Under the pieces are notes generated by a model. That model had not been told where the DNA came from. It saw only the letters and a program-made list of their open reading frames with translations, and did not search any database. Made by a program: the position numbers and the translations under genes. This document shows positions 395 to 49,446 of a stretch of 64,000 nt of DNA, one piece after another. Location: NCBI GenBank assembly GCA_034178705.1, contig JAXFQY010000039.1:18623-82622 (forward strand), given 5' to 3'. Source of the DNA: Eubacteriales bacterium. Its GTDB lineage: Bacteria > Bacillota > Clostridia > Oscillospirales > CAG-272. Every line of letters starts with the position of its first letter. Position 1 is the first letter of the stretch.

Positions 395-961
395 TCAATA
401 GGTCGGCGTATCAAGCAGCCATTTTTCTCCGTCAAAACGCAGTGTCAGAACGGCATCCTCATCTTTTTCCCCGTTCGTTTCGGTTTCAATGCGGATTACC
501 ACCCGTTTGCTTCCGCTTTTTTCAATCGTCATGGTATCAAAAGAATAGGTTCTTTCCCCTGGGAGAATGGATTGGATATACCGATCCTGCATCAGCTGTC
601 CGAGGTCATCCTCGGTGAATCGCGGTAGAATGACGCCGACACTGTCTGTTATTCCGACAAACAACGTCTCAAAGATTCCCTCACAGTAGTCCGCCGTATA
701 GACAGCGCGTGCTGCCTCCTTCAGTTGATCGATCGTATCATATCTGCTTTTTTCTAAATCCACATAGCGGTAATCTGTTCCGGTAATCCCTTCCACCGTT
801 GGAAGTCCGTAGCCGAAAAAAATCTCGTTCAATTCCAGACTGTCGGTAATCAGTGCTTCGGCAATCGGCCTGATCTCTTCAAGAGTAGGTCCGCCGCAGG
901 AGGAAAACAGAATGGCCGTGCAGAGAAGAAACACACAAAAGAAAGCAAACTTAGCTTTCAT
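395..961 (-). CDS. Probable secreted lipoprotein, unknown function
   Basis: The 234-aa ORF (395..1099) is trimmed to the internal ATG at 961. This gives [25 protein letters not shown], a signal peptide ending in a lipobox-like Cys. The upstream part of the ORF overlaps the gyrA 3' end. With this start the overlap with the gyrA stop is only 11 nt. Confidence 0.6.
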
Positions 962-3509
962 TTCCGTTCTCCCCGGAATTTCCCGTATTCTCTCTGTTTT
1001 CAGTTTCCTTTGTCCCTGCTGTCGTTTCGCCGTCAGACAGAGCACTCTGCTCGGGGATTTCTTCTTGCTCCGGCTGATTTCCGTCGTGAACAACCGCAAA
1101 ATTGGAAATCACGGCATTCTCCGCTGTGCGCATGACAATAACACCGGCCGCGGAACGGCTGTACACCGGGATTTCATCCGCGTGTATACGGACAACCGTT
1201 CCGGTATCTGTAATCATCATAATGTCATCCTGCTCACCGACGGAAGCAATCCCGATCACCGGACCGGTTTTTTCGGTAATATTCTGACAGGTGACACCGT
1301 GCCCTCCACGATTTTTCATCTGGCGGAAATCGTCAAACGGTGTCCGCTTTCCGCATCCGCGCTCGGTTATGACAAGCAGACGTCGGTCGTCTGAGACAAG
1401 CGCAGCTCCGCAAACCGCATCCCCGTCTTCCAGGCGGATACCGATGACACCACGGGCGGTTCTTCCCATCGGACGGATTGTATCTCCACGGAAGCGCACG
1501 GCATTTCCCGAACGGGTCGCAATGACAAGCTCATCCTCATCCTCCATCTCTCCGGCATAGATCAGCTCGTCACCCTCATCCAACGAGAGGGCGCGCTTTC
1601 CGGTTTTTCTCTGATATTCGAATTCGCTCATCGGTGTGCGCTTGATAATGCCGTTTTTCGTAAGCATCAAAAGATATTTGTCCCCGAAACCGTTTACGGT
1701 AATCACACCGGAAAGCTTCTCCCCGTCTTCAAGCTCCAGCAGATTGCGGATGTTGGTTCCCTTTGCCGTTCTTCCTGCCTCCGGAATGAAATAAACCTTC
1801 TTGGTATATACCTTTCCTATGGAGGTAAAGAACATCATCAGCGAATGGCTGTCCGCCGTGACAACGTTCTCGATGAAGTCATCCTCCTTTGTCTGCATGC
1901 CGATAATTCCCTTTCCGCCACGGCGCTGGGCGGAATACGTATCGGCAGGCTGACGCTTGATGTATCCGGCATGCGTCATGGTTACAACACACCGATGCTT
2001 CGGAATCAGATCTTCCAGAACAATATCATCCTCGGATTCCACAATATCGGTCAGGCGCGGATCCCCGAACTTAGCCTTGATGGCCAGCAGCTCGTCCCGC
2101 ACAATGGAACGAACCTTTGTTTCGTCCCTGAGGATTTCTTCAAGCTCCGCGACAATACTCCGCAATTTTGCCAGTCTGTCCTCGATTTTCTGCCGTTCAA
2201 GTCCGGAAAGCTTTCCGAGCGTCATATCAACGATCGCCTGCGCCTGTGCCTCCGAAAGCGCAAACTCCGCCATAAGAGCTTCCCTTGCTGCCGGTATCGA
2301 CTCACTGTGCTTGATAATCTCAATGACACGGTCGATATTATCGATGGCGATTTTGTATCCCTCCAGAATATGCATCTCATGCAACGCTTTATCAAGGTCG
2401 AATTTTGTACGGCGCACAATAATTTCTTTCTGAAAGGAAATATATTGCTGAAGGATTTCCTTCAGGGAGAGAATCTTCGGTTCGCCGTTTACAATGGCAA
2501 GCATATTAACAGCAAAGGTATCCTGAAGCTGTGTATATTTATATAGCTGATTCAGTATCACCTGTCCGTTTGCATCTCTGCGGTATTCTATGACAATACG
2601 CATTCCCGCGCGTCCCGTCTCGTCACGCAGACCCGTGATTCCATCCACACGTTTTTCCTTGTGCAGATCCGCAATGCTTTTGACCAGCATTGCCTTATTG
2701 ACCGCATACGGGATTTCGGTTATGATAATACGATGCTTTTCCTCGTCAATCTGCGCGCGGGCGCGGACAGAAATATGCCCCTTTCCCGTCGCATATGCCG
2801 CATAAATGCCCGATGTTCCGTATATCGTTGCCTTTGTCGGAAAATCGGGTCCCTTGATATACTGCATGATCTCATTCAGATCCGCCTCCGGATTGTCAAG
2901 CAAACAGACAACCCCGTCGATGACCTCTCCAAGGTTGTGGGGCGGGATATTCGTCGCCATACCGACAGCGATACCGACCGAGCCGTTGACAAGCAGATTC
3001 GGAAAGCGCGAGGGAAGAACCGTCGGCTCCTTCAGCTTGTTGTCATAGTTCGGAACAAAGTCGACAACATTTTTTTCAATGTCCATCATCATATAGTCGG
3101 AGATTTTCGCAAGACGCGCCTCGGTATAACGGTAGGCAGCGGCACCGTCTCCGTCGACATTACCGAAGTTACCGTGTCCTTCCACCAGCGGATACCGGAG
3201 CGAGAAGGACTGAGCCATGCGAACCATCGATTGATAGACCGCGCTGTCCCCGTGCGGATGATACCGCCCGAGCACATTTCCGACGGTAGTTGCCGACTTG
3301 CGGAACGGCTTATCGCTTGTAAGGTGATCCTCATACATCGCGTAGAGAATGCGGCGCTGACCCGGCTTCATACCGTCCCGAACGTCAGGCAGAGCACGAC
3401 TTGTAATGACACTCATGGAGTAATCTATAAAAGACTTCTTTACCTCCGCCTCCATTGCGATGGGGACAATTTTCTGATTGGAATAGTCAAGCTCATGATT
3501 GTGTTCCAT
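951..3509 (-). CDS. gyrA: DNA gyrase subunit A
   Basis: 852-aa ORF. The N-terminus [35 protein letters not shown] and the catalytic-Tyr region [11 protein letters not shown] are typical of GyrA. It has a C-terminal beta-pinwheel region followed by an acidic tail. It lies directly downstream of gyrB. Confidence 0.97.
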
Positions 3510-3606
3510 TTATTCTTCCTTTTCCATTACCGGCAGACGAAGGATTCTTCACCTTCTTTTTGCCGCATTTCTCATCTTTCAACAAATAAAATTGGTATCT
3601 CTGATT

Positions 3607-3739
3607 TGTCGAAAAAAGTTTTCTAAAGAGGAAAACCGGCTTGGATCATCGGTTTCAACAGAGTTTTCAACAGGTTGTTGAAAACTTTTGAACAAGAGTT
3701 TTCAACAGATTGTCGAAAACTATTTTTTCTGTTGAGAAC
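3607..3739. promoter_or_regulatory. Cluster of eight TGTYGAAAAC / GTTTTCRACA 10-mers in the gyrB-gyrA spacer (candidate DnaA-box cluster or Spo0A-type operator array)
   Basis: Plus-strand copies: 3607-3616 tgtcgaaaaa, 3676-3685 tgttgaaaac, 3711-3720 tgtcgaaaac, 3730-3739 tgttgagaac. Reverse-orientation copies: 3651-3660 ggtttcaaca, 3663-3672 gttttcaaca, 3685-3694 cttttgaaca, 3698-3707 gttttcaaca. Positions 3663-3685 form a perfect 10-bp inverted repeat with a 3-bp spacer. Confidence 0.5.
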
Positions 3740-3740
3740 T

Positions 3741-5744
<2,004 letters not shown>

Positions 5745-5869
5745 TTAACGATCATTCTTGCTTCATTACTTTTCAACGGCAGTTTGGTTTAACATCGGAA
5801 AAGCTTTGCCTTTTCTGAAAGAAAAAATAAGCTAAAAGATCTTTTCCTCTGCTTTTTTGTTTTTTATTC

Positions 5870-6172
5870 TTATCCGATTTCCTCTTCACATCTGGATTTG
5901 AGAGCGGAAGCACTGATTTGGGAAAAAAGTACACGCGAGTGGGAAAAAAGCTCTGAGGGCTTCTGATAAGCAGTTTTTTTTCGCGGTGATATATCCGCAA
6001 ACAGAATAAAAGACTTCGGCAGCTCTTCAGCAGCGGATTCAACTTTGCCTGCATGCTCCGAACGGCGCAAAAAGTTTTTTGTATCCTCTCCGCGGCTGGC
6101 TGTATCAAGATCAAAAATTCCGATAACAGAACCACTGCGCAGAATACGGTTATTACCCGCATGTAAATACAT
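5870..6172 (-). CDS. DUF370 protein (RemB/YaaB-like)
   Basis: The 137-aa ORF is trimmed to the ATG at 6172, which is preceded by an aggag RBS. MYLHAGNNRILRSGSVIGIFDLD resembles the B. subtilis YaaB/RemB N-terminus. Its position between recF and gyrB is the conserved Bacillota position for this gene. Confidence 0.75.
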   Translation of the reverse strand: MYLHAGNNRILRSGSVIGIFDLDTASRGEDTKNFLRRSEHAGKVESAAEELPKSFILFADISPRKKTAYQKPSELFSHSRVLFSQISASALKSRCEEEIG

Positions 6173-6209
6173 AAAAATCTCCTTTTTCAATGCTGAAACT
6201 GCCAAAAAA

Positions 6210-7337
6210 TTAATTGATTTCAGTAAAAACACCGTTCTTGGCATGAATGATTTTACAGGAAGCAAGCCCTGCATCAGCCTCACAGGTGGTTATGATATAC
6301 TGTTTGTCTGCAACACGATCAAACAGATATTTTCTTCTTTCTGCGTCCAGTTCGCTTAAAACATCGTCAAAAAGAAAGACGGGATGCTCCCCGGTCAGCT
6401 CCCGGCAGATTTCTCCTTCCGCAAGCTTAAGGGAAAGCACCGCGGTTCTTTGTTGTCCCTGACTGCCCCACTGACGGAGAGGAACTCCGTTGATTTTCAG
6501 AATCAGATCATCGCGGTGAGGGCCGCGCTGCGTGGATCCTGCGGAAAGATCACGGTCAAGCCCCGCTTCCAGCAATCTGAGATACTCCTGCTCGCTATCC
6601 GCAAAATTGTGAGGATCCGGTACATCACAGGAATACTGAATACGCAGACGTTCGGTATTTTCGCTCATTTCCGACATAATAAACTCTGCATGCGGGGAAA
6701 GCTTTTCAATATATTCCGCCCGGCGCTGTGCAATTTTTGCCGCAAAACGGGCAAGCTGCGCATTCCATACCGGTATATTTTCCAATAATCTCTCCCTCTG
6801 AGCACCGGAAATCCCGGAAACGCCGATTTTTTTGATCAGTGCATTCCGATTTTCAAGCGCCATTGTATAGTTTCCGAGAAGATAGACATAATCGCGAGAA
6901 AGCTGAGAAATTGCGATATTCATAAATTCTCTTCTCTCGGAAGGAGAACCCTTTACAATACCGAGATGGTCCGGACAGAACAAAACAGCACGGAAATGGG
7001 AAATCATTTCAATATTCCGTTCCAGCTTAACACCGTTCAGATATCGTTTTGTTTTTTTATCCGTATGTTCAAGAAGAAGCTCTTCCTCTCTTTGTGCGTC
7101 AGTATACTCGTTCTTAACGGTAAAAAACGTATCCCCGCTTCGTATAAGCTCCCTGTCCGGAGTTCCGCGAAAACTTCTTCCCCGTGCAAAAATATAGATT
7201 GCTTCGAGAAGATTGGTCTTTCCCTGCGCATTTCTACCGAAGATAACATTGACTCCGGGCGAAAAACTGACTTCGGCATTCTCAATATTACGATAACTGC
7301 GCAGGGTCATTTTCCGGCAATACACGGCGTCAGTCAC
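6210..7337 (-). CDS. recF: DNA replication and repair protein RecF
   Basis: 375-aa ORF with Walker A GRNAQGKTNLLEAI, an SMC-like signature region SQGQQRT and Walker B LFDDVLSELD. It follows dnaN. An alternative start at 7310 (MTLRSYRNIE) would remove the 8-nt overlap with dnaN. Confidence 0.9.
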   Translation of the reverse strand: MTDAVYCRKMTLRSYRNIENAEVSFSPGVNVIFGRNAQGKTNLLEAIYIFARGRSFRGTPDRELIRSGDTFFTVKNEYTDAQREEELLLEHTDKKTKRYLNGVKLERNIEMISHFRAVLFCPDHLGIVKGSPSERREFMNIAISQLSRDYVYLLGNYTMALENRNALIKKIGVSGISGAQRERLLENIPVWNAQLARFAAKIAQRRAEYIEKLSPHAEFIMSEMSENTERLRIQYSCDVPDPHNFADSEQEYLRLLEAGLDRDLSAGSTQRGPHRDDLILKINGVPLRQWGSQGQQRTAVLSLKLAEGEICRELTGEHPVFLFDDVLSELDAERRKYLFDRVADKQYIITTCEADAGLASCKIIHAKNGVFTEIN

Positions 7338-8472
7338 TCAGTTTGACCGGCATCACAAGGAAAAACTGTTTTTTCTTTTCATCTTTCTCCGTGGGCATAA
7401 CATACATACTGGTGCGCGGTCCCTTTAGTTTCATTGTCACATTGTCGCAATCAAGGGCACGGAGAACATCAATCAGAAAACGGCAGGTAAAACCGATCTC
7501 CAGCTCCTCCCCACTGTATTCGCACGGCAGCTCATCGTTGATCTGCCCGGAAAGAGAGGTAGACGAAATTTTCAGAAGATTATCGGAAAAATGCAGACGC
7601 AGATGGCTGCGCGTGGAGCTGACACTCTTTTTTTCGGAAATCAGCGCCGCCCGCTCAAGACATTCGAGAAAGGCAACCCGATTGATTTTCACCGTAATCG
7701 GCATATCCCCCTGAATAATCCGCTCATAATCCAGGTATTTCATATCGATCAGGCGGGAGAAAAAGATCAGATCTCCAATGACAAATACAACATGCTTTTT
7801 TGCCGGCTTGATCGTCATCAGATCCTCCTCATCATCCGAGAGGATTTTCTGAAGCTCATTCAGGGACTTTCCGGGAATGATCATATTGATCTCACTGGGG
7901 AGATCGGCATTGATTTTCGTATAATACTCGCACTTGGAGAGCGTAAAGGTATTGCACGCTACCATTGTAAGAAGATTTTCCCGGATCTGAAGATATCCGC
8001 CGCACAGCTCGGGGTGGTTGCTGTCTGTCTGGGCAATCGAATGGGCGGTAGATCCCATTATCGTTTTCAGAATGCTTTGTTCGATTACAAATCCCCATTC
8101 CCCATCCAGTTCCGGGGGTGTCGGAAATTCCTTTCCGTTCAGCGCCCTCATCGTATAACAAACACGGTTGCACCGCAGATGTGCTGTCATTTTTTCATTG
8201 ACTGACAACTCAATCTCATTTTCCGGCATAACGCGCACATACTGATAAAAATCCTGGGCATTTACGATATAAGAACCCGGCTCGATGACCTGTGCGGCAA
8301 CATTTGCCCGGACTCCTTTATCCATATCGTAGGTCATAACACGGCATCGGCCGTCCTCAGATGCTTCAATTAATACCCCTTCAAGAGAGGTAAAGGTATT
8401 CTTGCTTGAAACACAACCCATTGCCGGGGTCAGCGCCGCAAGCAGCTTGACCTTATCAAAAATTATTTTCAT
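7330..8472 (-). CDS. dnaN: DNA polymerase III beta sliding clamp
   Basis: The 435-aa ORF is trimmed to the ATG at 8472 (MKIIFDKVKLLAALTP), which is preceded by an aaggag RBS. The product is 380 aa and ends in LVMPVKLSD, typical of DnaN. The discarded N-terminal extension is a translation of origin repeats (poly-Leu from CTG/CTA trinucleotides). Confidence 0.92.
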   Translation of the reverse strand: MKIIFDKVKLLAALTPAMGCVSSKNTFTSLEGVLIEASEDGRCRVMTYDMDKGVRANVAAQVIEPGSYIVNAQDFYQYVRVMPENEIELSVNEKMTAHLRCNRVCYTMRALNGKEFPTPPELDGEWGFVIEQSILKTIMGSTAHSIAQTDSNHPELCGGYLQIRENLLTMVACNTFTLSKCEYYTKINADLPSEINMIIPGKSLNELQKILSDDEEDLMTIKPAKKHVVFVIGDLIFFSRLIDMKYLDYERIIQGDMPITVKINRVAFLECLERAALISEKKSVSSTRSHLRLHFSDNLLKISSTSLSGQINDELPCEYSGEELEIGFTCRFLIDVLRALDCDNVTMKLKGPRTSMYVMPTEKDEKKKQFFLVMPVKLSD

Positions 8473-8546
8473 AAAATACTCCTTTAAGTATGATCGAATT
8501 TTTAAGAATGAACAACTTGAGACTGCTGTTTTTGGGATTGCTTTTC

Positions 8547-8574
8547 TGTAATATAGTGTAATAGATAATAAAAA
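8547..8574. other. AT-rich candidate DNA unwinding element
   Basis: tgtaatatagtgtaatagataataaaaa is 24/28 A/T. It lies immediately on the dnaN-proximal side of the trinucleotide array. Confidence 0.5.
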
Positions 8575-8592
8575 TAGCAGCAGTAGCAGTAG
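8566..8592 (-). repeat. DnaA-trio-like phased trinucleotide array
   Basis: The plus strand reads TAA TAA AAA TAG CAG CAG TAG CAG TAG, nine phased triplets with an invariant central A. It is followed by GGG (8593-8595) and two abutting CGTTGAA repeats (8597-8613). Confidence 0.55.
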
Positions 8593-8815
8593 GGGTCGTT
8601 GAAGCGTTGAAATGTATCGGGAAACCTTGAAAGACAAGCTGTGTAGGGTGTTGAAGAAAGAGTAGAAAAAAGAAAGATTTCGGATAGCTTCAACAGCGGG
8701 GAAAAATGCTTTCGCAAAAACTGTCGGGTAATACCGGTTTTCTTCAACAAAGTTTTGAACATTGACTGTTGAAAACTTTGAAAACTAAAGAAAAATAAAA
8801 TCGGTTATCGGTCAA

Positions 8816-10198
8816 TCAACCGCGGATTTCCGAGACAAGCTCCTTGATTTCATCTTCAAAAAGAGGGTCTCCCGCAATTTGCTCTTCAATCTTGGCAAGA
8901 CTGTGATGAATGGTTGCGTGGGATCTTCCGAACATATTTCCGATAGCGATCATGGAAAGATCGGTGAGGGAGCGAAGCAGATAGATGGCAACATTACGGG
9001 CATTTACGGTATTGGCAGCCTGACTTTTTCCTTTCAGCTCGGCAGCGGAAATGGAATATTTTCTGGCAACCGCTTCAATGATTTTATCGCTGACAAGATT
9101 CTGCGGCTCGCTTTCGGTAAGAAGATCGGAAATGGCGGCGCGGGCGGTTTCCAGCTGGATTCCGGTTCCGTCCAGAAAGGAAAGCGCCGCGATTTTCTTT
9201 ATGGCGCCCTCTACCTGACGAATATTGGATTTCAGGCGATCTGCCATATAGGTTACAACTTCGCTTGACAGTTCAATATGCAGATTTTTTGCCTTCTGTT
9301 TAATGATTGCCATGCGCAGTTCGATATCCGGAGGCTGAATATCCGCGATCATGCTTTGCTCAAATCGGGTACGGAGCCGCTCCTCAAGAGGATTGATATC
9401 CTTCGGGGGTTTATCGCTTGTAAAGATAATCTGCTTGTTATCCTCATAAAGAAAATTAAAAGTATGGAAGACCTCCTCCTGAACGGAAGTTTTATTCGCA
9501 ATAAACTGAATATCATCGATAATCAGAATATCAGCGCGGCGGAATTTTTCGCGGAATTCCGGTGTGCGCTTGAACTGAATCGCCTCAATAAGCTGATTTG
9601 TAAAATCCTCGCCGCTGATGTAAATCAGGGAGACATCCGGAAAACACCGCTCCACCATGTTTTTGATGGAATACATCAGATGCGTCTTTCCGAGACCGCT
9701 CGGACCGTAGATAAAAAGCGGATTGTACATGTCCCCGATATGGTCGTAATCCTTATCACCTGCATTGCTTGCCACAGCATAGCATGCCGCATAGGCAAGT
9801 TTGTTTGAGGAACCCTGTACAAAGTTCTCAAAGGTGAATTCTGCTGTTTTACTTCCCGGTATATTTCCGGGAAGGGAGCTGTTTTTCTCTTCTCGGCGAT
9901 TTTCTTCTTCCTCTCGGCGGGTAACCGTCTGCGCTGTCAGAGTCGGATCGCCGGTGAATTCAATTTTGATCCGGAAACCGAGAAGTCCTTCTATCGTTTC
10001 GGCAATTTCCTCTGCGTATTTTCCTTGTACGACTCCGCGTTTGAAATCATTCTCGATATAGAGAAGCACGCGGTTTTCATCCAGATCGAGAATCTTGCAG
10101 TCCTCAAACCAAAGACCGACAAAGGTGGAGCTGTATTTTTCACGCAGCTTTTCAACAACAAGCTGCCAGATTCCGCTCAGATCCCCGGAGGCATTCAT
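8816..10198 (-). CDS. dnaA: Chromosomal replication initiator DnaA
   Basis: 460-aa ORF with Walker A YGPSGLGKTHL, Walker B ILIIDDIQF, sensor/box VII region RLRTRFEQSMIADIQPPD and a C-terminal HTH domain. The domain IV signature is atypical (FGRSHATIHHS instead of [9 protein letters not shown].H). Confidence 0.95.
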   Translation of the reverse strand: MNASGDLSGIWQLVVEKLREKYSSTFVGLWFEDCKILDLDENRVLLYIENDFKRGVVQGKYAEEIAETIEGLLGFRIKIEFTGDPTLTAQTVTRREEEENRREEKNSSLPGNIPGSKTAEFTFENFVQGSSNKLAYAACYAVASNAGDKDYDHIGDMYNPLFIYGPSGLGKTHLMYSIKNMVERCFPDVSLIYISGEDFTNQLIEAIQFKRTPEFREKFRRADILIIDDIQFIANKTSVQEEVFHTFNFLYEDNKQIIFTSDKPPKDINPLEERLRTRFEQSMIADIQPPDIELRMAIIKQKAKNLHIELSSEVVTYMADRLKSNIRQVEGAIKKIAALSFLDGTGIQLETARAAISDLLTESEPQNLVSDKIIEAVARKYSISAAELKGKSQAANTVNARNVAIYLLRSLTDLSMIAIGNMFGRSHATIHHSLAKIEEQIAGDPLFEDEIKELVSEIRG

Positions 10199-10235
10199 GC
10201 GGGCATTCTCCTTTATATATATAATAAGTATCTAA

Positions 10236-10264
10236 ATTATATCATAGTATCGGATATATTTCAA
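10236..10264 (-). promoter_or_regulatory. Predicted sigma-A promoter of dnaA
   Basis: The minus strand reads TTGAAA (10264-10259), a 17-nt spacer, then TATAAT (10241-10236), with TG at the extended -10 position. It lies about 40 nt upstream of the dnaA ATG. Confidence 0.5.
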
Positions 10265-10347
10265 GGGATTATGGGAAAAAAGCAATTTCAGAAAAACAGG
10301 GAGAATTCTTTTCTGTCGGGGGTTTTGGAAAAACCCTGTCTGCCCCC

Positions 10348-10376
10348 TTGAATTGTTGCATCTTTCATGTTATACT
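10348..10376 (+). promoter_or_regulatory. Predicted sigma-A promoter of the sugar-kinase gene
   Basis: TTGAAT (10348-10353), a 17-nt spacer, then TATACT (10371-10376), about 50 nt upstream of the ATG at 10428. Confidence 0.4.
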
Positions 10377-10427
10377 ACCGTTGAATCAGTCTGTACATAT
10401 AAAAATTAAACAGGAAGGATTATAGAT

Positions 10428-11711
10428 ATGAACGCACTCCAATTGGCTGAATATATCCGGGCAGGAAAGGCAGACGCAAAGCTGAATGCGCTTTACGGCA
10501 AAAATCTTGACAGGCAAAGAAAAAGATATGCCGATGCAGCAGAAAAATTTGCCTCGCTTTACGGGGCTGAAAAGGATGCTTTTTTCTTCTCGGTTCCGGG
10601 GAGAAGCGAAATATCCGGAAATCATACCGACCATAACCGCGGAAAGGTTCTTGCGGGGGCCATTGATCTTGACATAATCGCTGTCGCAAGCCGCACGGAT
10701 GATGGCGCCGTACGTGTCCGCAGTGAGGGATACAGTGAGGATCGCGTGGAGCTTTCCGATATCAGTGAGCCGAAAAAGGAGAACTTTTTCAAATCCCGCG
10801 GACTGCTTGCAGGAGTACTTGCCGGTTTGCAGAAAAACGGTCATGAGGTTTGTTCCTTTTGTGCTTATACGACGAATGATGTTCACAAAGGAAGCGGGCT
10901 CTCCTCTTCTGCCGCATTTGAGGTGATGATCGGAAATATTGAAAATCATTTGGCAAACGGCGGAAAAATCGGAAATCCGGAGATTGCGAAAATTTCTCAG
11001 TTTGCGGAAAATGTATATTTCGGAAAGCCCTGCGGTTTGATGGATCAGATGGCTTGTGCCGTCGGCGGCTTTGTTGCGATTGATTTTGAAGATCCGCAGA
11101 ATCCGGTAATTGAGTCGTTGGATTTTGATCTGTCCGGTCACGGATACTCCCTTTGCATTGTCAATACCGGCGGAAATCATGCCGATCTCAACGAGGATTA
11201 TGCATCGGTTCCGGCCGAAATGAAAAAGATTGCAGCGTATTACGGGAAGGACGCATTGCGCGGATTGACAGAGGAGCAGCTGATTTCCGACATGCCGGTT
11301 CTTCGCAAAGCGGCAGGGGATCGTGCCATTCTCCGTGCTATGCATTTTGTTGCCGAAAACAAGCGTGTTGAAAAACAGACAGAAGCGCTGCGCCGCGGTG
11401 ACCTTGATACGTTTTTTGCCGGTGTGATTGAAAGCGGAAACAGCAGTTTCAAATATCTCCAGAATGTTTATACTGTGAAAAATGTAGAGGAACAGGGACT
11501 GTCCCTTGCACTTTGCGTAACCGAATATGTAACCCGTGGCTGGGGCGGTGCATTCCGTGTACACGGCGGTGGTTTTGCCGGTACGATTCAGGCATTTATT
11601 CCGACAGAAAAAGTCGAAGAATATACAAACATCATGAATTCCGTCTTCGGACAGAATGCCTGCGCCGCGCTGAAGGTTCGTCCCGAGGGAGCAATCCTTG
11701 TGAATCTGTAA
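10428..11711 (+). CDS. Galactokinase-family GHMP sugar kinase
   Basis: 427-aa ORF. PGRSEISGNHTDHNRGKVLAGAIDLD matches the galactokinase signature region, and GSGLSSSAAFEV is the GHMP ATP-binding motif. The exact sugar specificity cannot be determined from the sequence. Confidence 0.8.
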   Translation: MNALQLAEYIRAGKADAKLNALYGKNLDRQRKRYADAAEKFASLYGAEKDAFFFSVPGRSEISGNHTDHNRGKVLAGAIDLDIIAVASRTDDGAVRVRSEGYSEDRVELSDISEPKKENFFKSRGLLAGVLAGLQKNGHEVCSFCAYTTNDVHKGSGLSSSAAFEVMIGNIENHLANGGKIGNPEIAKISQFAENVYFGKPCGLMDQMACAVGGFVAIDFEDPQNPVIESLDFDLSGHGYSLCIVNTGGNHADLNEDYASVPAEMKKIAAYYGKDALRGLTEEQLISDMPVLRKAAGDRAILRAMHFVAENKRVEKQTEALRRGDLDTFFAGVIESGNSSFKYLQNVYTVKNVEEQGLSLALCVTEYVTRGWGGAFRVHGGGFAGTIQAFIPTEKVEEYTNIMNSVFGQNACAALKVRPEGAILVNL

Positions 11712-15835: not shown

Positions 15836-17722
15836 ATGCAGCATACAACAGACATTGTGATTATCGGCGCAGGACATGCAGGAGTAGAGGCGGCGCTTGC
15901 TGCGTCACGGCTCGGTCTTTCCACCGTGCTGTTCACCTTAAGTCTTGACGCTATTGCCAATATGCCCTGCAATCCGTCGGTAGGCGGAACGGCCAAGGGG
16001 CACCTGGTCTATGAGATTGATGCCCTCGGAGGGGAGATGGGACGCGCGGCTGATGCCGTAACGCTTCAAAGCCGGACCCTTAACACCGGTAAGGGCGCTG
16101 CCGTCCGCTCCAAGCGGATACAGGCGGACCGCGCCGCTTACCGACTATATATGAAGCACACAGTGGAGCGCGCCCCGCACCTTGATCTGATTCAGGATGA
16201 AGTGACTGAGCTGCTGACAGAACCGCTGCCGGATGGGCGGCGCCGTCTCTGCGGGGTTGTTACGCGCGCGGGGGAAACCTATTTGTGCCGCGCGGCAGTG
16301 ATCTGCGCCGGAACCTATCTCGGCGGCAGAATCCATATGGGGGAGCACAGCTGGGCATCCGGACCGGACGGACAGCTTCCCGCTTCCGGGCTGACAGCCT
16401 CTCTTGCTGCGCTCGGTTGTTCGCTGCGCCGCTTCAAAACCGGAACACCGCAGCGTATCGATCGCCGGACAATTGATTTTTCCCGCTTGGAGATTCAGGA
16501 GGGGGAGCCGGACCCGGCACCGTTTTCGGCACTGACCGACCCCGCACATTTTTCCGGTTTTACCGGAATTCCCTGTCATATCGTCTATACGACCGAAAAA
16601 ACACACGCTGTGATTCAAAAAAACATCGGAAGGAGTGCAATGTACTCCGGAAGAATTCATGCTGTAGGACCGCGTTATTGTCCCTCCATTGAGGACAAAA
16701 TTGTTCGCTTTGCGGACAAGGAGCGGCATCAGCTTTTTCTGGAGCCGACTGGAGCAGAAACAAATGAGATGTATCTGCAGGGTTTTTCCACATCGATGCC
16801 TGCAGAAGTCCAGGAGGAGATGGTACATACCCTTCCCGGTTTTGAGGAAGCGCATATCATGCGCTATGCCTATGCCATCGAATATGACTGCGTTGACCCG
16901 CTTTCCCTGACGCCTGAACTGGAATTCAAAGAGATTGCCGGACTTTACGGAGCCGGACAATTTAACGGGACTTCCGGCTATGAGGAAGCGGCGGCACAGG
17001 GGCTTGTCGCCGGTGCAAACGCCGCTCTGCGTCTGCTTGGGCGCCCTGCGCTCAGTCTTCCGCGTTCTTCTTCCTACATCGGTACGCTGATCGACGATCT
17101 TGTGACAAAGGGAACGAATGAGCCGTACCGTATGATGACCTCTCGCTCAGAATACCGTCTTCTGCTTCGGCAGGATAACGCCGATCTGCGTCTGACTCCG
17201 CAGGGGTACGACCGCGGACTTGTCGGGGAGGAACAATACCGTATATTTTCCGATCGCCGCCGGGCAATCGAGGGGGAGATTACCCGTCTCTCCGAAACCA
17301 CTTTGCCGCCCTCTGCCGAGGTTAACGCCATGCTCTCCGCACATAACTCCGCACCGCTTACAACCGGCTGTCGTATGGCGGAACTTCTGCGAAGGCCGGA
17401 GCTTGATCTGACGGCACTCCGTTCGGTCGATTCCGCTGCGCCCGCGCTTTCCCGCGGCGTTCTCGAAAGTGTGGAGACGGCGGTCAAATATGAGGGGTAC
17501 GTCCGGAAACAGCTGGACGCTGCCGAGCGCGCAAAAAAAATGGAGCAGATGCTGATTCCCGACGATATTGATTATCATGCCGTTTCCGGACTGAGGCTTG
17601 AGGCTGCGGAGAAGCTTTCCCGAATCCGCCCGCGGAACATCGGGCAGGCAAGCCGAATCAGCGGCGTCAATCCCGCCGATATTACCGTTTTGCTGATCCG
17701 GCTGAAATCCGGAAAGGAATAA
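15836..17722 (+). CDS. mnmG: tRNA uridine 5-carboxymethylaminomethyl modification enzyme MnmG (GidA)
   Basis: 628 aa. FAD-binding N-terminus DIVIIGAGHAGVEAALAASRLG, plus GPRYCPSIEDKIVRF and GQFNGTSGYEEAAAQG motifs. Confidence 0.95.
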   Translation: MQHTTDIVIIGAGHAGVEAALAASRLGLSTVLFTLSLDAIANMPCNPSVGGTAKGHLVYEIDALGGEMGRAADAVTLQSRTLNTGKGAAVRSKRIQADRAAYRLYMKHTVERAPHLDLIQDEVTELLTEPLPDGRRRLCGVVTRAGETYLCRAAVICAGTYLGGRIHMGEHSWASGPDGQLPASGLTASLAALGCSLRRFKTGTPQRIDRRTIDFSRLEIQEGEPDPAPFSALTDPAHFSGFTGIPCHIVYTTEKTHAVIQKNIGRSAMYSGRIHAVGPRYCPSIEDKIVRFADKERHQLFLEPTGAETNEMYLQGFSTSMPAEVQEEMVHTLPGFEEAHIMRYAYAIEYDCVDPLSLTPELEFKEIAGLYGAGQFNGTSGYEEAAAQGLVAGANAALRLLGRPALSLPRSSSYIGTLIDDLVTKGTNEPYRMMTSRSEYRLLLRQDNADLRLTPQGYDRGLVGEEQYRIFSDRRRAIEGEITRLSETTLPPSAEVNAMLSAHNSAPLTTGCRMAELLRRPELDLTALRSVDSAAPALSRGVLESVETAVKYEGYVRKQLDAAERAKKMEQMLIPDDIDYHAVSGLRLEAAEKLSRIRPRNIGQASRISGVNPADITVLLIRLKSGKE

Positions 17723-17724
17723 CC

Positions 17725-18462
17725 ATGGATCATTTTGCTGAGACAGAAAAACTGGCGGCATCCATTTTTGCACAAAACGGATGCGAACAGTATACCGTCC
17801 TCCTTCCGCGCTTCTCCGCTTTTGGCGATCTCCTTCTGCGGGAGAACGAAAAGCATAATCTGACGGCGATCCGTTCCGCAGAGGATGTGTGGCTCCGGCA
17901 TTTTGCCGATTGCCTTCTTTTTGCTGATTTTTTCAATACACGTGCAACCCTGATTGATGTCGGATGCGGCGGCGGTTTTCCTTCCGTTCCCCTGGCACTT
18001 GCCTGCCCTGCTCTGAAGGTTACCGCGTGCGACAGTACAAAGAAAAAAACCGATTTTGTCTCCCTTGCGGCACAAACCCTTGCTCTTGAGAATTTGCGGA
18101 CCCTTTGCGCCCGCGCTGAGGAGGCCGGAAAAAGCCCTGTCTGGCGCGAACGCTTTGATTTTGCTTCTGCCCGCGCCGTTTCCGCTTTGCCCGCCCTTGC
18201 TGAGTATTGTTTGCCGCTTGTCCGTGTCGGTGGCTGTTTTGCCGCCTTTAAAGGAAAAGACGCTGAAGTTGAGCTTGCTGCAGCCGAGCCGATGATTGCC
18301 AATCTGGGAGGAAAAACGGACCGAATTTTGCATAAAACGCTCCTCGCTCCCGACGGAGAAGCGATCGAGCGCTCCTTGATTATCATTCGCAAGATTCGCC
18401 CCACTCCGGCTGTTTTTCCGCGAAAAAACAGCGTTATTCAGAGAGAGAAGACGCGAACATAA
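17725..18462 (+). CDS. rsmG: 16S rRNA (guanine527-N7)-methyltransferase RsmG (GidB)
   Basis: 245 aa. It starts 3 nt after mnmG, has the SAM motif LIDVGCGGGFPSVPLAL, and follows the canonical mnmG-rsmG pairing. Confidence 0.9.
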   Translation: MDHFAETEKLAASIFAQNGCEQYTVLLPRFSAFGDLLLRENEKHNLTAIRSAEDVWLRHFADCLLFADFFNTRATLIDVGCGGGFPSVPLALACPALKVTACDSTKKKTDFVSLAAQTLALENLRTLCARAEEAGKSPVWRERFDFASARAVSALPALAEYCLPLVRVGGCFAAFKGKDAEVELAAAEPMIANLGGKTDRILHKTLLAPDGEAIERSLIIIRKIRPTPAVFPRKNSVIQREKTRT

Positions 18463-18941: not shown

Positions 18942-21900
18942 TTAGAGAGAGACGGCGGTGTTTCCGGAAAGGGTGTCTGCATCGGGAACAGAAACCGTTT
19001 CTGTGGCGGGAAGATCGAAGTTTTGCGACTGTTGGCTGTCACAATCGGCGCTGTCAGCAGGCACTTTCTGATTGTCGTTGTCATCCTGAGGAGAAGCGGA
19101 AGGACCCGAATGTGCCTTGTGAACGGAAATATCGTTGTAGATTTCCAATCCTGTTCCGGCGGGAATCAGTTTACCGATAATAACATTCTCCTTAAGGCCG
19201 AGCAAATGATCGACCTTTCCGCGGATTGCCGCTTCGGTGAGAACCTTGGTGGTTTCCTGGAAGGATGCTGCGGAGAGGAAGGATTCGGTTTGCAGAGAAG
19301 CCTTGGTGATACCGAGCAGAACGGGAGAGCCGACTGCCGGGCGGAGCGTGGTTTCTCCTGCAGCTATGCGGCGCTCAATTATCTCGTTTTCTTCACGGAA
19401 ATCGGTGACCTCGACCATCGAGCCAAGGAGAAGCCCAGTGTCTCCCTCATCCTCGACACGAACCTTACGGGACATCTGTCGTGCGATGACCTCGATATGC
19501 TTATCATTAATGATGATTTCCTGAGAGCGGTAAACCTTCTGAACCTCGCGGATGATATAATCGAACACGGCGTCAAGACCCTGAATCCGGAGAATATCCG
19601 CGGGACTCTTATATCCTTCGGTCATGCCCTGACCGACAACGACCTTGTCACCCTCTTCGACGAGAATGCGCATTCCGAACGGGATGGGATAGATGGCTTC
19701 CCTGCCGTCTTCAGCCGTGATGACAATATTGCGCATCCGTTTATCCTCACGGATGGAGACAGTACCGTCAAGCTCTGCAATAGCGGCGGTTTTTTTCGGA
19801 CGGCGGGCTTCGAAGAGCTCCTCAATACGCGGGAGACCCTGTGTAATATTGGCGGATGCAATACCACCGGTGTGGAAAGTACGCATCGTAAGCTGGGTAC
19901 CCGGTTCGCCGATCGACTGAGCGGCGATAATACCGACGGCCTCGCCGACGTTGACGGGCTTTCCGGATGCCAGGTCGGAGCCGTAGCAATGTGCGCAGAC
20001 CCCGCGTTTTGCCTCACAGCGCAGAATGGAGCGGACATTGACCTCCGTGATGCCGGCGTCAACAATCTGTTTAACCTGCGCTTGGGAGATCATGGTGTTG
20101 TCGGGAACGATAACTTCTCCGGTTCTCGGATCGACAACATCGCCGATGACATAGCGGCCGCCGAGACGGTCGGCAAGCGACTCGATTACTGTGCGATCCT
20201 GATCGCTTGTGCCCAGCTTGTCGCTTTCTTCATAGATAGCGGATACAAGCAGACCGTGTCTTGTGCCGCAGTCCTCTTCGCGGACGATAACTTCCTGTGA
20301 GACATCGACAAGGCGACGGGTCAGGTAACCGGAGTCAGCCGTTTTCAGAGCGGTATCGGAAAGCGACTTACGGGATCCTCTCGCGCCGACAAAGTAGTCG
20401 AGGATTTTCATTCCTTCACGGAAGTTTGTCTTGATCGGAATTTCCATTGTGCGTCCGTCGGTTGCGAACATCAGTCCGCGGAGACCTGCAAGCTGACGGA
20501 GCTGGCTGGAGTTACCGCGTGCGCCCGAATCAATCATCATCTTGATCGGGTTGTAAGCATTGAAGCCTTTCTGGAGAGCGTCGGTGATTTGTTTGGTCGT
20601 GTTTTCCCAGGTTGCAATAACGCGGTCATAGCGTTCACGATCATCCAATTCACCTTCGTTGAAGTGGTCGGTGATCTCGGCAACCCTATCTTCCGCTGCG
20701 GCGATCAGGGCGTTCTTTTCCGGCGGAATTGTCATGTCATATACGGAGATGGAGAGCGAGGAGATGGTCGAATACTTAAAGCCGGTTGCCTTAATGGCAT
20801 CGAGTGTCTCGGCAGCTACACCGAGACCGTGAATTTTGATGCAGCGGTCGACAATCTCGGTGAGCATTTTTTTCTTGACAACAAATTCAATTTCAAGACG
20901 GAACGCATTCTCCGGATCGGAGCGGTCAATAAATCCGAGGTCCTGCGGAATGTTGTTGTTGAAAATGAGCTTGCCGAGTGTGCAGGGGATAATTTTGCTC
21001 TGCATGACCCCGTCGATTTCCTTGAAGACGCGGACTTTGATCTTGGCCTGCAGGGTAATCTGATGATTCTGATACGCCATCATGGCTTCATCAAAATTGC
21101 GGAAAGCTTTTCCTTCGCCCGGCTCATTGTCCCGATCCATCGTCAGATAGTAGGAACCGAGAATCATATCCTGAGACGGTACAGCGACGGCGCGTCCGTC
21201 AACCGGCTTCAGAAGGTTATTTGCAGAGAGCATCAGGAAGCGCGCTTCTGCCTGCGCTTCCGGGGAAAGCGGAACATGGACCGGCATCTGGTCGCCGTCA
21301 AAGTCCGCGTTGAACGCCGTGCAGACGAGCGGATGAAGCTTGATGGCTCTGCCTTCGACAAGGATCGGTTCAAACGCCTGAATGGACAGACGGTGCAGTG
21401 TCGGTGCACGGTTCAGAAGGACCGGATGTTCCTTGATCACATATTCGAGCGCGTCCCAGACGTCGGGGTTAACGCGATCGACCTTTTTCTTTGCTTCTTT
21501 GATGTTACCTGCCTTATTGGTTTCAACAAGGCGCTTCATGACAAACGGCTTGAAGAGCTCGAGAGCCATTTCTTTCGGAAGACCGCACTGGAAAATCTTT
21601 AGGCTCGGTCCGACGACAATAACCGAACGGCCGGAGTAGTCGACACGCTTGCCGAGCAGATTCTGACGGAAACGTCCCTGCTTACCGCGGAGCATTTCGG
21701 AAAGGGATTTCAGCGGGCGGTTGCTCGGACCGGTAACCGGCTTGCCGCGTCTGCCGTTGTCAATGAGAGCGTCAACCGCCTCCTGAAGCATGCGCTTTTC
21801 GTTGCGGATGATGATTTCCGGCGCGTGCAGCTCCATCAGCTTGCGCAGACGGTTGTTGCGGTTGATAACGCGTCGATAGAGGTCGTTGAGGTCGGAGCAG

Positions 21901-22646
21901 GCAAAGCGTCCGCCGTCAAGCTGAACCATCGGACGGATTTCCGGAGGAATAACCGGAATAACATCGAGGATCATCCATTCCGGGCGGTTTCCGGATTTTC
22001 GGAAAGCTTCCACAACGTCCAGCCGTTTGATCAGCTTGAGCTTACGCTGACCGTTTGCGGTCAGCAGTTCTTCCTTGAGTTGTGCGGAAAGGGCTTCAAT
22101 ATCCAGCTCCGCCAACAGCTCCTTGATTGCTTCCGCGCCCATGCCGACGCGGAAATCGTTTTCAAATTTTTCCTTCAGCTCTCGGTATTCGGCGTCAGAA
22201 AGCGTGGCACCCTTTTCCAGCGTTGTATGACCGGGATCAAGAACGATATAGCTTGCAAAATACAGCACCCGCTCAAGCTGGCGGGGGGAGATATCCAGCA
22301 GAACGCCGATCCGGGACGGAATGGCGCGAAAATACCAGATATGGCTGACCGGTGCCGCAAGCTCGATGTGTCCCATCCGCTCACGGCGAACCTTTTTCGT
22401 TGTTACCTCAACGCCGCATTTATCGCAGATTTTTCCCTTGTGGCGCTGTCTTTTATATTTTCCGCACTGGCATTCCCAGTCTTTCGTCGGCCCGAAGATC
22501 CGTTCACAAAACAGACCGTCTTTTTCTGCCTTTAAGGTGCGGTAGTTGATGGTTTCCGGCTTCTTGACCTCTCCGTGCGACCAGCTGCGGATCATTTCCG
22601 GGGATGCAAGACCGATCTGGATAGAGCTGAAAACATTCTTATCCAT
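18942..22646 (-). CDS. rpoC: DNA-directed RNA polymerase subunit beta'
   Basis: 1234 aa. It has the zinc-binding N-terminus [20 protein letters not shown], the catalytic NADFDGDQM motif and trigger-loop/bridge-helix regions. Confidence 0.97.
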
Positions 22647-22721
22647 CTATTTTAACCCTGTCTTTCCCGTCAGGCGGGAAAGTTTCCTCTCGCAAAATTT
22701 CGGATGACCTTTCAGAAGCAC

Positions 22722-25700
22722 TTAACCCTCGTCGTCGTCAAAGCCGTCGTCATCATCGATGTCATCGCCGAAAACATCGTGATCCAGGCTGTCGTCGATA
22801 TCCTCTCCCTTTTCGGTAAAGGAATCAAACATATCATCGGTTTCGACCAAATCGCCGAGATCCTCATCACTGACAAGGTTCGGGGGTTCCAGTTCATCCT
22901 CACATTCGGAAAGCTCAACCGTGTTACCGTCCGCGTCAAGAACGCGGATATTAAGCGCAAGTGCCTGCAATTCCTTCACAAGTACCTTGAAGGATTCCGG
23001 CACGCCCGGGGTCGGAATATTCTGGCCCTTGACAATTGCCTCATAGGCTTTTACTCTGCCAGTGACATCGTCCGACTTAACGGTAAGAATCTCCTGAAGC
23101 GTGTAGGCAGCGCCGTATGCTTCCAGCGCCCAGACTTCCATTTCCCCGAAGCGCTGACCGCCGAACTGCGCTTTTCCGCCGAGCGGCTGCTGCGTGACGA
23201 GGGAGTAAGGGCCTGTAGAGCGCGCATGAATCTTATCGTCAACCAGATGATGGAGCTTAAGGTAGTACATAATTCCGACCGTAACCGGATTGTCGAACGG
23301 CTCTCCGGTTCTGCCGTCATAAACGGTGGTCTTTCCGTCAACGACACGGAGCTTCCCTTCTTCAAGAAGACTGTCATAGCGTTCCGGATCGTCCGCACGG
23401 ACAATATCGCGGTACTTCTTTCCTTCCGCATCCGGTTCATCGAGCAGCTCAATAATTGCCTTGCCGTCGACATTTTCGTTGCGGCGGATTTCACGCCACA
23501 TTTCCGCTTTTTTCATCAGCTCGAGAATGTCCTTCTCGTTTGCACCGTCAAAGACCGGGGTCATAACCTTGATGCCGAGTTTGCGCGCCGCCATGCCGAG
23601 GTGAACCTCAAGCACCTGTCCGATATTCATACGGGACGGAACGCCGAGCGGGTTCAGCACGATATCAAGCGGAGTGCCGTCCGGGAGGAATGGCATATCC
23701 TCCGGCGGAAGAATACGGGAAACGACACCTTTGTTTCCGTGACGGCCGGCCATCTTATCTCCGACAGATATTTTTCTCTTCTGTGCGATATAGATCCGCG
23801 CGACCTTATTTACGCCGGGCGCCAGCTCATCGCCGTTTTCACGGGAAAATACGCGGACATCAACGACAATTCCGCTTTCGCCGTGCGGCAGACGGAGGGA
23901 GGTATCACGGACTTCACGTGCTTTCTCTCCGAAAATAGCACGCAGCAGCCGTTCTTCGGCGGTCAGCTCGGTTTCCCCCTTCGGGGTGACCTTGCCGACA
24001 AGAATATCCCCGGCGCGAACCTCCGTGCCGATTTTGACGATGCCTTCCGCTGTCAGATCCTTCAAAGCGTCCTCACCGACATTCGGAATTTCGCGTGTAA
24101 TTTCCTCGGGGCCGAGCTTGGTGTCCCGTGCCTCGTGGGAGTATTCCTCAATGTGAATCGAGGTGTAAACATCGTTGCGTACCAGACGCTCGTTCAGCAG
24201 AACTGCGTCCTCATAGTTATATCCTTCCCAGGTCATAAAGCCGATCAAGGCGTTCTTGCCGAGGGACATTTCGCCGTTTGAGGTGGACGGACCGTCCGCA
24301 ATGACGTCGCCCTTTGTGATTTTCTGCCCCTCGCTTACGATCGGACGCTGATTGACGCAGGTGCCCTGATTGGATCGCTTGAATTTCAGAAGACGGTAAA
24401 CATCGCGCTGTCCGTCCTCCCGGCGGATCGTGATTTCCGCGGCGGTAACACGCTCTACGACGCCGCTTTCCTTCGCAATCACGACAACACCGGAGTCATA
24501 GGCTGCCGGATATTCCATGCCGGTTGCAACGATCGGTGCTTCCGTGACCATCAACGGGACAGCCTGCTTCTGCATGTTCGAGCCCATGAGCGCCCGGCTG
24601 TTATCGTCATTTTCCAGGAAGGGGATCATTGCTGTGGCAACGGATACAACCATCTTCGGGGAGACATCCATCAGGTCGACCTCTTCCCGGTCAACTTCAA
24701 TAATCTGATCCTTCGCACGGACGACGACGCGCTTGTTTTTGAAGCGATGCTGCTCGTCGAGCGGCTCATTTGCCTGCGCAACGATGTAATCGTCCTCGAC
24801 ATCTGCCGTCATGTAGCGGACCTCGTCGGTGACAATACCGGTTTCTTTATCGACAACACGGAACGGCGCTTCAATAAAGCCGTATTCACTGATCTTAGCG
24901 TAGGTGGCAAGATAAGAAATCAGACCGATGTTCGGACCTTCCGGCGTCTCAATCGGACACATTCTTCCGTAATGCGTATAGTGAACGTCACGGACGTCGA
25001 AGGATGCACGGTCACGGGAAAGACCGCCGGGACCGAGCGCGGAGAGACGGCGCTTATGCGTCAACTCCGCCAGGGGGTTGTTCTGATCCATGAACTGTGA
25101 AAGCTGAGAAGAGCCGAAAAACTCACGGATCGCCGTGACAACCGGACGAACGTTGATCAAAGCGGCGGGGGAGACATCTTCGGTATCCTGCAGGGTCATC
25201 CGTTCCTTGACGATTTTATCAAGACGGGAGAGACCGATGCGGAGCTGATTCTGGAGCAGCTCACCGACCGAACGCATGCGGCGGTTTCCGAGATGGTCAA
25301 TATCATCCGTCTGCCCGATTCCATGGCTCAGGCAAATCAGGTAGTTAATAGAAGAGAAGATATCATCGACAAGGATGTGCTTCGGGCAGAGATCAAGCGC
25401 GCGCGCTTCACAGAGACGGAGAAGTTTGTCCTTATCCCCGCCTGCCTCTTCAATGATCTCGGAGAGAACGTCAAAACGGACCTTTTCGGAAAGCCCCTTG
25501 ATTTCAAGAGGATAACCGAGCAGGGCTTCGGGGTAGATTGTACCGTTGCCGAATACGCGCTGCTCCGCACCGTTGTCTCCGGTTACATAGGCTTCATTTG
25601 CGCCGCGGCGTTCAATTTCACGGGAGAGCTTACGGTCAAGATAGACCCCGGCGTCGCAAAGAAGCTCGCCTGTCATGCTGACGATCGGGCGGGTCGTTTT

Positions 25701-48499: not shown

Positions 48500-48515
48500 T
48501 GTTTCACGTGAAACA
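48500..48515. promoter_or_regulatory. parS centromere-like site (perfect consensus)
   Basis: TGTTTCACGTGAAACA is an exact match to the Bacillota parS consensus. It lies about 145 nt upstream of parA. Confidence 0.85.
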
Positions 48516-48546: not shown

Positions 48547-48562
48547 TGTTTCATGTGAAACA
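48547..48562. promoter_or_regulatory. Second parS-like site (one mismatch)
   Basis: TGTTTCATGTGAAACA differs from the consensus at position 8 only. It is 47 bp (start to start) from the first site. Confidence 0.7.
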
Positions 48563-49422: not shown

Positions 49423-49446
49423 TATATAAAGGAAGGGAATTTGCGA

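Follow-up and report, generated by a model that had tools for sequence, protein, structure and literature searches.

Clusters of DnaA boxes near the replication origin are known from Bacillus, other Firmicutes and Actinobacteria, at genes that differ from species to species (PMC3245932, PMC2533591). Those of B. subtilis can regulate neighbouring genes and restrain initiation (PMC3245932, PMC2533591); the effect of the B. subtilis clusters depends on their closeness to oriC (PMC3245932). The essential core of the Escherichia coli DnaA-reactivating sequences (DARS) sets box I opposite boxes II and III, and a head-to-head pair of DnaA molecules on boxes I and II releases ADP (PMC6868365). We analysed a 64,000-nucleotide stretch of the genome of a Eubacteriales bacterium (Clostridia; Oscillospirales; CAG-272; assembly GCA_034178705.1, contig JAXFQY010000039.1, positions 18,623 to 82,622), hereafter the window, which carries a dense array of candidate DnaA boxes in the spacer between gyrB and gyrA. 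With a probability of about 0.7, we read this array as a cluster of DnaA boxes separate from the unwinding origin; its most probable role is that of a site near the origin where DnaA assembles and which buffers DnaA, controls gyrA, or does both. The identity of the spacer sites as DnaA boxes is well supported by sequence comparison.

The spacer, its flanking genes and its boxes are as follows.

951–3509, minus strand: gyrA (Pfam, open reading frame (ORF) coordinates); start codon 142 bp beyond triplet 2
3510–3740, minus strand: gyrB–gyrA spacer of 231 bp, containing the entire box cluster (ORF coordinates, Pfam, sequence)
3576–3584, plus strand: weak box CTTTCAACA with a single mismatch, facing the box at 3607–3615 in convergent orientation
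3607–3615, minus strand: downstream box TTTTCGACA, which gives TGTCGAA on the plus strand
3652–3684, minus strand: triplet 2, made of box I TTTTCAACA (3684–3676), ACC, box II TGTTGAAAA (3672–3664), CTC and box III TGTTGAAAC (3660–3652)
3686–3719, minus strand: triplet 1, made of box I TTTTCGACA (3719–3711), ATC, box II TGTTGAAAA (3707–3699), CTCT and box III TGTTCAAAA (3694–3686)
3730–3738, minus strand: box 0, TTCTCAACA, one mismatch to TTTTCAACA
3741–5681, minus strand: gyrB (Pfam); the box cluster begins 2 bp past its stop codon

Ten boxes resembling TTTTCRACA span 163 bp of the spacer (five exact, one TTTTGAACA and four with one mismatch), and the exact 9-mers start at 3607, 3664, 3676, 3699 and 3711. 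Each triplet is a convergent pair 3 bp apart with a tandem third box 3–4 bp further on; a single base (3685) separates the two units, and single boxes flank both. Tandem Repeats Finder describes both triplets as a 35-bp unit present 2.0 times with 88% matches, with a 12-bp sub-period as well, and a phase of about 12 bp is common to all the spacer boxes. The initial annotation had counted eight 10-mer elements, four per orientation, and a perfect 10-3-10 inverted repeat at 3663–3685. Both were recovered: four of the elements are exact, three have one mismatch (3607–3616, 3651–3660 and 3730–3739) and one has two (3686–3695). A second inverted repeat of the 10-3-10 type, with one mismatch, lies at 3698–3720.

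This density is exceptional within the window. The exact 10-mer TGTYGAAAAC occurs six times against 0.42 expected: four times at 3663–3720, once at 8767 in the dnaA–dnaN spacer and once at 49788. The last copy is inside the parB coding sequence, in codons translated as ALVENVQRED, and this one distant copy needs no further explanation. For the 9-mer TTWTNRACA, the spacer holds six strict boxes in a 150-bp stretch, whereas the largest cluster in 200 dinucleotide-preserving shuffles of the window had 2–3. The spacer is the only cluster of at least three boxes in the 64 kb.

To the right of gyrB lie the genes and sites of the origin, and all the origin-region genes (dnaA, dnaN, recF, gyrB and gyrA) are on the minus strand.

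6210–7337, minus strand: recF
7330–8472, minus strand: dnaN
8541–8613, minus strand: probable oriC unwinding module, with degenerate tandem boxes, a trinucleotide run and AT-rich DNA (from sequence and GC skew)
8741–8775, minus strand: three-box unit at the dnaA end of the dnaA–dnaN spacer, TTTTCAACA-5-TGTTCAAAA-3-TGTTGAAGA
8816–10198, minus strand: dnaA (Pfam), with the usual four domains

The cumulative GC-skew minimum of the window falls near 8 kb. The dnaA–dnaN spacer (345 bp) holds TTTTCAACA/TTTTGAACA boxes together with TTCAAC-type tandem boxes beside the trinucleotide run. The probable unwinding module begins with the tandem boxes ATTTCAACG and GCTTCAACG (8613–8597), followed by ACCC, the run itself (8592–8566) and AT-rich DNA. 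The run consists of nine trinucleotides, CTA CTG CTA CTG CTG CTA TTT TTA TTA, with an invariant central T; its complement reads 3'-GAT/GAC-5' with an invariant central A, which is the signature of DnaA-trios. Tandem boxes, a short G+C spacer of about 12–13 bp and then trios is the order of the basal unwinding system (BUS), defined by boxes, at least three central-A trinucleotides within about 13 bp and then AT-rich DNA (PMC8287927). The closest relatives in which dnaA was present (L002 and L003) have an identical unwinding layout with TTTTGAACA boxes. The canonical box TTATCCACA, allowing at most one mismatch, has 18 matches dispersed across the window and forms no cluster near dnaA, and the 229 bp upstream of dnaA (10199–10427) hold no box, in line with the scarcity reported there by the initial annotation. 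Its inverted pair at 8752–8776 in the dnaA–dnaN spacer was also found, with a 10-5-10 spacing.

Because the origin boxes stand next to the trio run and the layout is the same in L002 and L003, TTTTSRACA probably represents the DnaA box of this lineage. The motif of the gyrB–gyrA cluster is thus best read as that of the lineage's own DnaA box, TTTTC(A/G)ACA. Good boxes are more numerous and denser in the gyrB–gyrA spacer than in the origin spacer. The cluster lies about 4.9 kb from the trio and AT-rich module, outside the unwinding origin, and the BUS order is missing from it: no DnaA-trio run follows its boxes and it contains no long AT-rich stretch.

In having dense boxes that match those of its own origin, near but outside the unwinding region, the spacer resembles the B. 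subtilis DnaA-box clusters (such as yydA–yycS and ywcI–vpr). It differs from them in lying inside the gyrB–gyrA pair, a position unlisted for Bacillus, in its fixed three-box unit and in its TTTTC(A/G)ACA boxes. E. coli datA is likewise a DnaA-box cluster outside oriC and lowers initiation potential, but it acts with IHF, stimulating ATP hydrolysis on DnaA. According to a 2026 review, B. subtilis lacks IHF (PMC13220808). In the Borrelia gyrB–dnaA intergenic region, DnaA binds in a different arrangement. The open-access literature searched contains no description of DnaA boxes at gyrB–gyrA or upstream of gyrA, which agrees with the initial annotation, and no report of gyrA regulation by DnaA. 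Three features seem undescribed in that literature: the position between the gyrase genes, the DARS-like grammar of three boxes, which is conserved, and a box variant peculiar to this lineage and matched by changes in DnaA.

We then compared the locus with 80 others, from species-level genomes of uncultured gut Clostridia retrieved by a GyrB scan (GyrB 66–89% identical; the closest match to the window's GyrB is 89% identical). Five genes were located per locus and boxes were counted in these 80 relatives and the window (81 loci). Box density was 8.1 per kb between dnaA and dnaN, 3.4 per kb in the gyrB–gyrA gaps and 0.38 per kb over the other 843 kb. Clusters of at least three boxes occurred between dnaA and dnaN in 29 loci, downstream of gyrB in 19 and upstream of dnaA in one; the recF–gyrB gaps, the DNA after gyrA and the flanks had none in the 81 loci. 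Of the 14 gyrB–gyrA gaps of 61–700 bp, 10 contained at least three boxes; the shorter gaps did not and are weighed below.

The boxes recur in a fixed unit, box(>)-N3-box(<)-N1-4-box(<), exemplified in L016 by TTTTCCACA-GGT-TGTGGAAAA-GTA-TGTGAAAAA. It was found 19 times, 16 times downstream of gyrB, where box I is always next to gyrB, and three times between dnaA and dnaN. In all the gyrB-downstream units the gap between boxes I and II is 3 bp, and that between II and III is 1–4 bp, mostly 3. Across loci, adjacent boxes at a 3-bp gap were convergent 24 times, tandem 25 times and divergent never. The window and L001 have two tandem units, and L003 has one. Some relatives have a PfkB-family kinase gene between gyrB and gyrA (L019, 7093–8094; L033, 7351–8457; also L041, L050, L053 and L060). 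In L019 and in the L033 group, DnaA boxes lie within this coding sequence, including a convergent 9-3-9 pair in L019. This argues that position, and not membership of a gyrA promoter alone, is why the sites are retained.

Downstream of the triplets by 40–75 bp, a TCGACA-type box is present in the window (3607–3615) and kept in L001 and L003; similar elements occur at like offsets in L049 and L072, even where TTTTCCACA is the standard. This box may serve as a weak DnaA box, as a 0A-like box or as the −35-like element of a gyrA promoter.

The spacer sequences of the window itself were absent from all metagenome matches. The exact variant palindrome was present in 101 metagenome stretches, of which about 16 adjoin dnaA with up to 12 boxes nearby; about 20 distinct sequences chosen for the exact variant palindrome alone also carry the third box. 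Other palindrome stretches lie upstream of SpoU/RlmB-type RNA methyltransferase genes, with triplets there in L082 and L169, and we take these neighbours to recall the RNA-modification genes at Bacillus DnaA-box clusters (PMC2533591). An abundant human-gut organism carries the palindrome GTTTTCAACACCCTGTTGAAAAC in a mixed box group that includes TTTCCACAA (L105, about 2440–2560). This group was found in about 37 identical human-gut metagenome stretches (e.g., L090 and L146), and it sits between a SpoU-type methylase-like gene and an ArsR/SdpR-like regulator gene, as judged from inspected translations.

The type of box downstream of gyrB tracks that of the same genome's origin. Origins of relatives mostly carry TTTTCCACA, while some have TTTTCAACA-type boxes only, and the gyrB-downstream boxes are TTTTCCACA or TTTTCAACA accordingly. 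The window, L003 and L037 share origins without a C at the sixth box position, and none of their 14 gap boxes is of the C type, against 38 of 48 in the other ten loci (Spearman 0.68, p 0.011, n 13 for origin versus gap box type, kinship ignored). On the GyrB tree, the element is carried by the window clade, whose boxes are variant, and by a large clade whose boxes are mainly canonical. Between these two lies a boxless clade with fused gyrBA, and L037 is a further independent lineage. The simplest explanation of this co-variation would be that one protein, DnaA, reads both the origin and the gyrB-downstream site.

The recognition helix in domain IV of the window's DnaA reads R-S-H-A-T-I-H-H-S, and we take its E. 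coli counterpart to be R432-D433-H434-T435-T-V-L438-H439-A, with positions as given in PMC5043019. Ser replaces the highly conserved Asp433, Ala replaces Thr435 and Ile, in a hand alignment, replaces P423. L002 reads R-T-H and L003 R-S-H, so both share the loss of Asp. D433, H434, T435, P423, R399 and H439 are described as base contacts conserved in Firmicutes and E. coli (PMC7561715, PMC5043019, PMC8235120). Origins lacking C6 occur in six of the seven loci with a non-Asp residue at the D433 equivalent, against seven of the 42 with Asp (Fisher p 0.0007, 49 loci, kinship ignored); the association is real but incomplete. We considered D433 as the reader of box position 6, with the Asp-to-Ser change explaining C-to-A, and dropped this idea, retaining only the statistical association. 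The literature ties D433 to box position 7 (PMC8235120).

How such an array may act can be sketched by analogy. Several DnaA molecules would assemble cooperatively on it, and, being close to the origin, the array would be replicated almost at once after initiation, which would double its copy number. With its copy number doubled so early, it would absorb or modulate free DnaA near the origin, as the B. subtilis clusters do, so that free DnaA could be buffered soon after initiation. Expression can also be lowered by boxes that lie inside a transcribed region or shortly before it, as in DnaA-repressed promoters and roadblocks (dnaA autoregulation), and E. coli asnC has a terminator-like DnaA block. 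Since the array lies between gyrB and gyrA without a consensus promoter or terminator, bound DnaA could dampen read-through into gyrA or initiation of its transcription. Damping of this kind would couple the supply of a gyrase subunit to the status of the initiator.

Several observations weigh against this interpretation. A scan of the spacer's coding strand allowed no gyrA promoter to be placed relative to the boxes, and the transcriptional part is conjecture for that reason; in a looser scan of 14 loci, no promoter was at a constant distance from the triplets. Only two of the six B. subtilis clusters measurably affect initiation (PMC3245932), so a sink role is not to be assumed. All 25 gyrB–gyrA gaps of 14–60 bp, including those of the sister clade of the window's group, have fewer than three boxes, and the gyrB-downstream cluster is therefore dispensable in evolution. 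The preference of the window's DnaA for TTTTCAACA is inferred from sequence context. For the switch of box type in the gaps, the window clade and L037 provide about two independent instances, and the co-variation and residue statistics are uncorrected for shared ancestry. Finally, TTTTCAACA-only origins also occur with a canonical R-D-H DnaA (L010, L011, L015 and L021), so the residue change alone is insufficient to account for the box change.

The closest rival explanations keep DnaA as the binding protein. The units might act as DARS do, with two DnaA molecules set head to head on boxes I and II promoting nucleotide exchange and so reactivating the initiator. Read from the MG1655 genome, the cores are TTATCCACT-5-TGTGGATAA-3-TGTGTATTA in DARS1 and TTATTCACC-5-TGTGGATAG-3-TGTGAAGAA in DARS2. 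Both units of the window and the 16 gyrB-downstream units share their topology, with box I convergent with II and III in tandem with II, and the II–III gap, mostly 3 bp, agrees as well; the 5- and 3-bp gaps together are found solely in the origin-side unit (8775–8741). Conservation of the unit in 16 gyrB-downstream loci also speaks for this possibility. Yet every gyrB-downstream unit has a I–II gap of 3 bp where both E. coli cores have 5, and the DARS loci of E. coli lie in unrelated chromosomal surroundings and in another phylum. Convergent and tandem pairs at 3 bp are moreover the commonest packing of boxes in these genomes, origins included, so the layout may signify no more than strong cooperative binding. 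In B. subtilis, nucleotide exchange on DnaA is rapid without assistance, which likewise counts against this possibility, and DARS loci are absent from B. subtilis according to the 2026 review (PMC13220808). In the window's DnaA, the residue equivalent to E. coli Gln208 is Asn (hand alignment). We regard DARS-type exchange as unlikely, and the same holds for the broader idea that the three-box unit is a Firmicute counterpart of the DARS core whose DnaA pair on boxes I and II alters the nucleotide state of DnaA, by reactivation or the converse; the likeness concerns layout, not activity. The spacer could also be one half of a split origin, looping through DnaA to the dnaA–dnaN cluster, replacing the cluster upstream of dnaA and being needed for initiation. 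Bacillus and Clostridium have a box cluster upstream of dnaA, and such boxes are missing in the window and in all but one of the relatives in which dnaA was found; the spacer is richer in good boxes than the origin spacer; and bipartite origins are known from B. subtilis (incAB/incC), C. difficile and H. pylori (both oriC1/oriC2), where two clusters near dnaA are likewise split by coding DNA (PMC7561715, PMC3479198). Here, however, the second cluster is 4.9 kb away, beyond dnaN, recF and gyrB, with three to four genes between, it shows neither a trio run nor a long AT-rich stretch nor other unwinding features, and it is absent in many relatives: 25 of them lack both the upstream-dnaA and the gyrB-downstream cluster, so that one cluster suffices in this group. 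A split origin is therefore improbable. Of the initial annotation's two versions of a secondary DnaA-box cluster, the identity is thus upheld by the origin motif, the conservation downstream of gyrB and the co-varying box type, and the titration-type version fits best, while the displaced half of a bipartite origin is weakened by the 25 short-gap relatives, which show no second cluster at any place in the retrieved locus and almost never have boxes upstream of dnaA.

The remaining alternatives replace DnaA by another factor or by RNA structure. A dimeric transcription factor other than DnaA could repress gyrA through the 10-3-10 palindromes, since two near-perfect palindromes with the same 3-bp spacing lie 35 bp apart before gyrA, and the palindrome recurs upstream of unrelated genes in metagenomes. 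An operator of this kind would show paired half-sites only, at a fixed spacing and with co-varying arms. The spacer instead has an unpaired third half-site after each palindrome and further single boxes; the origin spacer has the half-site singly and at 5-bp spacing, with degenerate copies by the trio run; the arms differ at box positions 5–6 in eight of 15 loci (compared by eye); and in relatives the half-site becomes the canonical TTTTCCACA in step with their origins. LexA (GAAC-N4-GTTC), Rex, CRP/FNR, CtsR, CIRCE and NrdR were compared by consensus only, and none fits. This operator reading, which the initial annotation had also offered, fares poorly on the unpaired third box, the 5-bp origin versus 3-bp spacer spacing and the independently varying arms, and we consider it very improbable. 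The array could alternatively be one of Spo0A, which would switch off gyrA or the origin as sporulation begins. The TGTCGAA cores that the annotation had pointed out at 3607 and 3711 are present, most L003 boxes read TGTCGAAAA, several loci have a TCGACA-type box downstream of their triplets, and in the origin of B. subtilis 0A and DnaA boxes overlap. The core is found in just two of the ten window boxes, however, and is unenriched window-wide (10 observed against 11.3 expected); in the larger clade the homologous units have TGTGGAAAA, a sequence that does not qualify as a 0A box, and TGTCGAA is weakly enriched in the gaps of that clade (2.7-fold, p 0.017). No Spo0A gene was found among the scanned ORFs of the 64-kb window, which is one part of the genome. 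Without an array of repeated TGTCGAA cores, the Spo0A reading is poorly supported and remote. Lastly, the inverted repeats might fold in a gyrBA transcript and act as an attenuator, processing site or stabiliser. Folding of the spacer RNA gives −67 kcal/mol (z = −5.4 relative to shuffled sequences), but convergent boxes give such stability automatically. The coding (minus) strand of the spacer has no U-tract terminator and the stems are A+U-rich, so the G+C-rich hairpin followed by a U-tract expected of an intrinsic terminator or attenuator is missing; no Rfam family reached the gathering score in the window, and the spacer gave only sub-threshold microRNA and small RNA noise; arm mismatches in relatives are uncompensated and lie at positions variable among DnaA boxes generally; and box III of each unit is unpaired. 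A role as an RNA or DNA hairpin is barely plausible.

Upstream of dnaA (10199–10427) there is no rpmH, and a galactokinase-like gene (10428–11711) diverges from dnaA. The recF–gyrB gap (5682–6209, 528 bp) has no DnaA boxes and contains an ORF of about 100 amino acids (5870–6172, minus strand), thought RemB/DUF370-like by inspection but without a Pfam hit. Two parS sites (48500–48515 and 48547–48562), one reading TGTTTCACGTGAAACA and the other with one mismatch, closely precede parA (48661–49422), which is followed by parB (49441–50322). Their distance from the origin is about 40 kb, and they are on the side opposite gyrBA. The rpoC and rpoB genes (18942–26600, minus strand) are to the right of the putative origin; given this position and strand, their transcription would oppose the movement of the replication fork, an uncommon arrangement for such highly expressed essential genes. 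By contrast, mnmG and rsmG (15836–18462) are co-directional with replication. No tRNA genes were found in the window.

The control of DnaA in bacteria without Hda, SeqA, datA or DARS is partly understood, and the 2026 review calls it still unknown whether any factor regulates the ADP/ATP state of DnaA in B. subtilis (PMC13220808); the element described here could bear on that question. Its fixed position and three-box grammar, conserved over many uncultured gut Clostridia, make it a simple object that fits on one 70-bp fragment. It also offers a natural experiment in the co-evolution of initiator and sites, in which one lineage changed its DnaA recognition residues, its origin boxes and the boxes of a second site in step. 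Origin-prediction tools that seek TTATCCACA would mis-score such genomes. Should the DARS-like possibility prove true, these uncultured Clostridia would have a DNA-encoded switch of the DnaA cycle 5 kb from oriC, of a kind reported absent in B. subtilis. If bound DnaA modulates gyrA, the status of the initiator would be linked to the supply of the enzyme that sets supercoiling at the origin.

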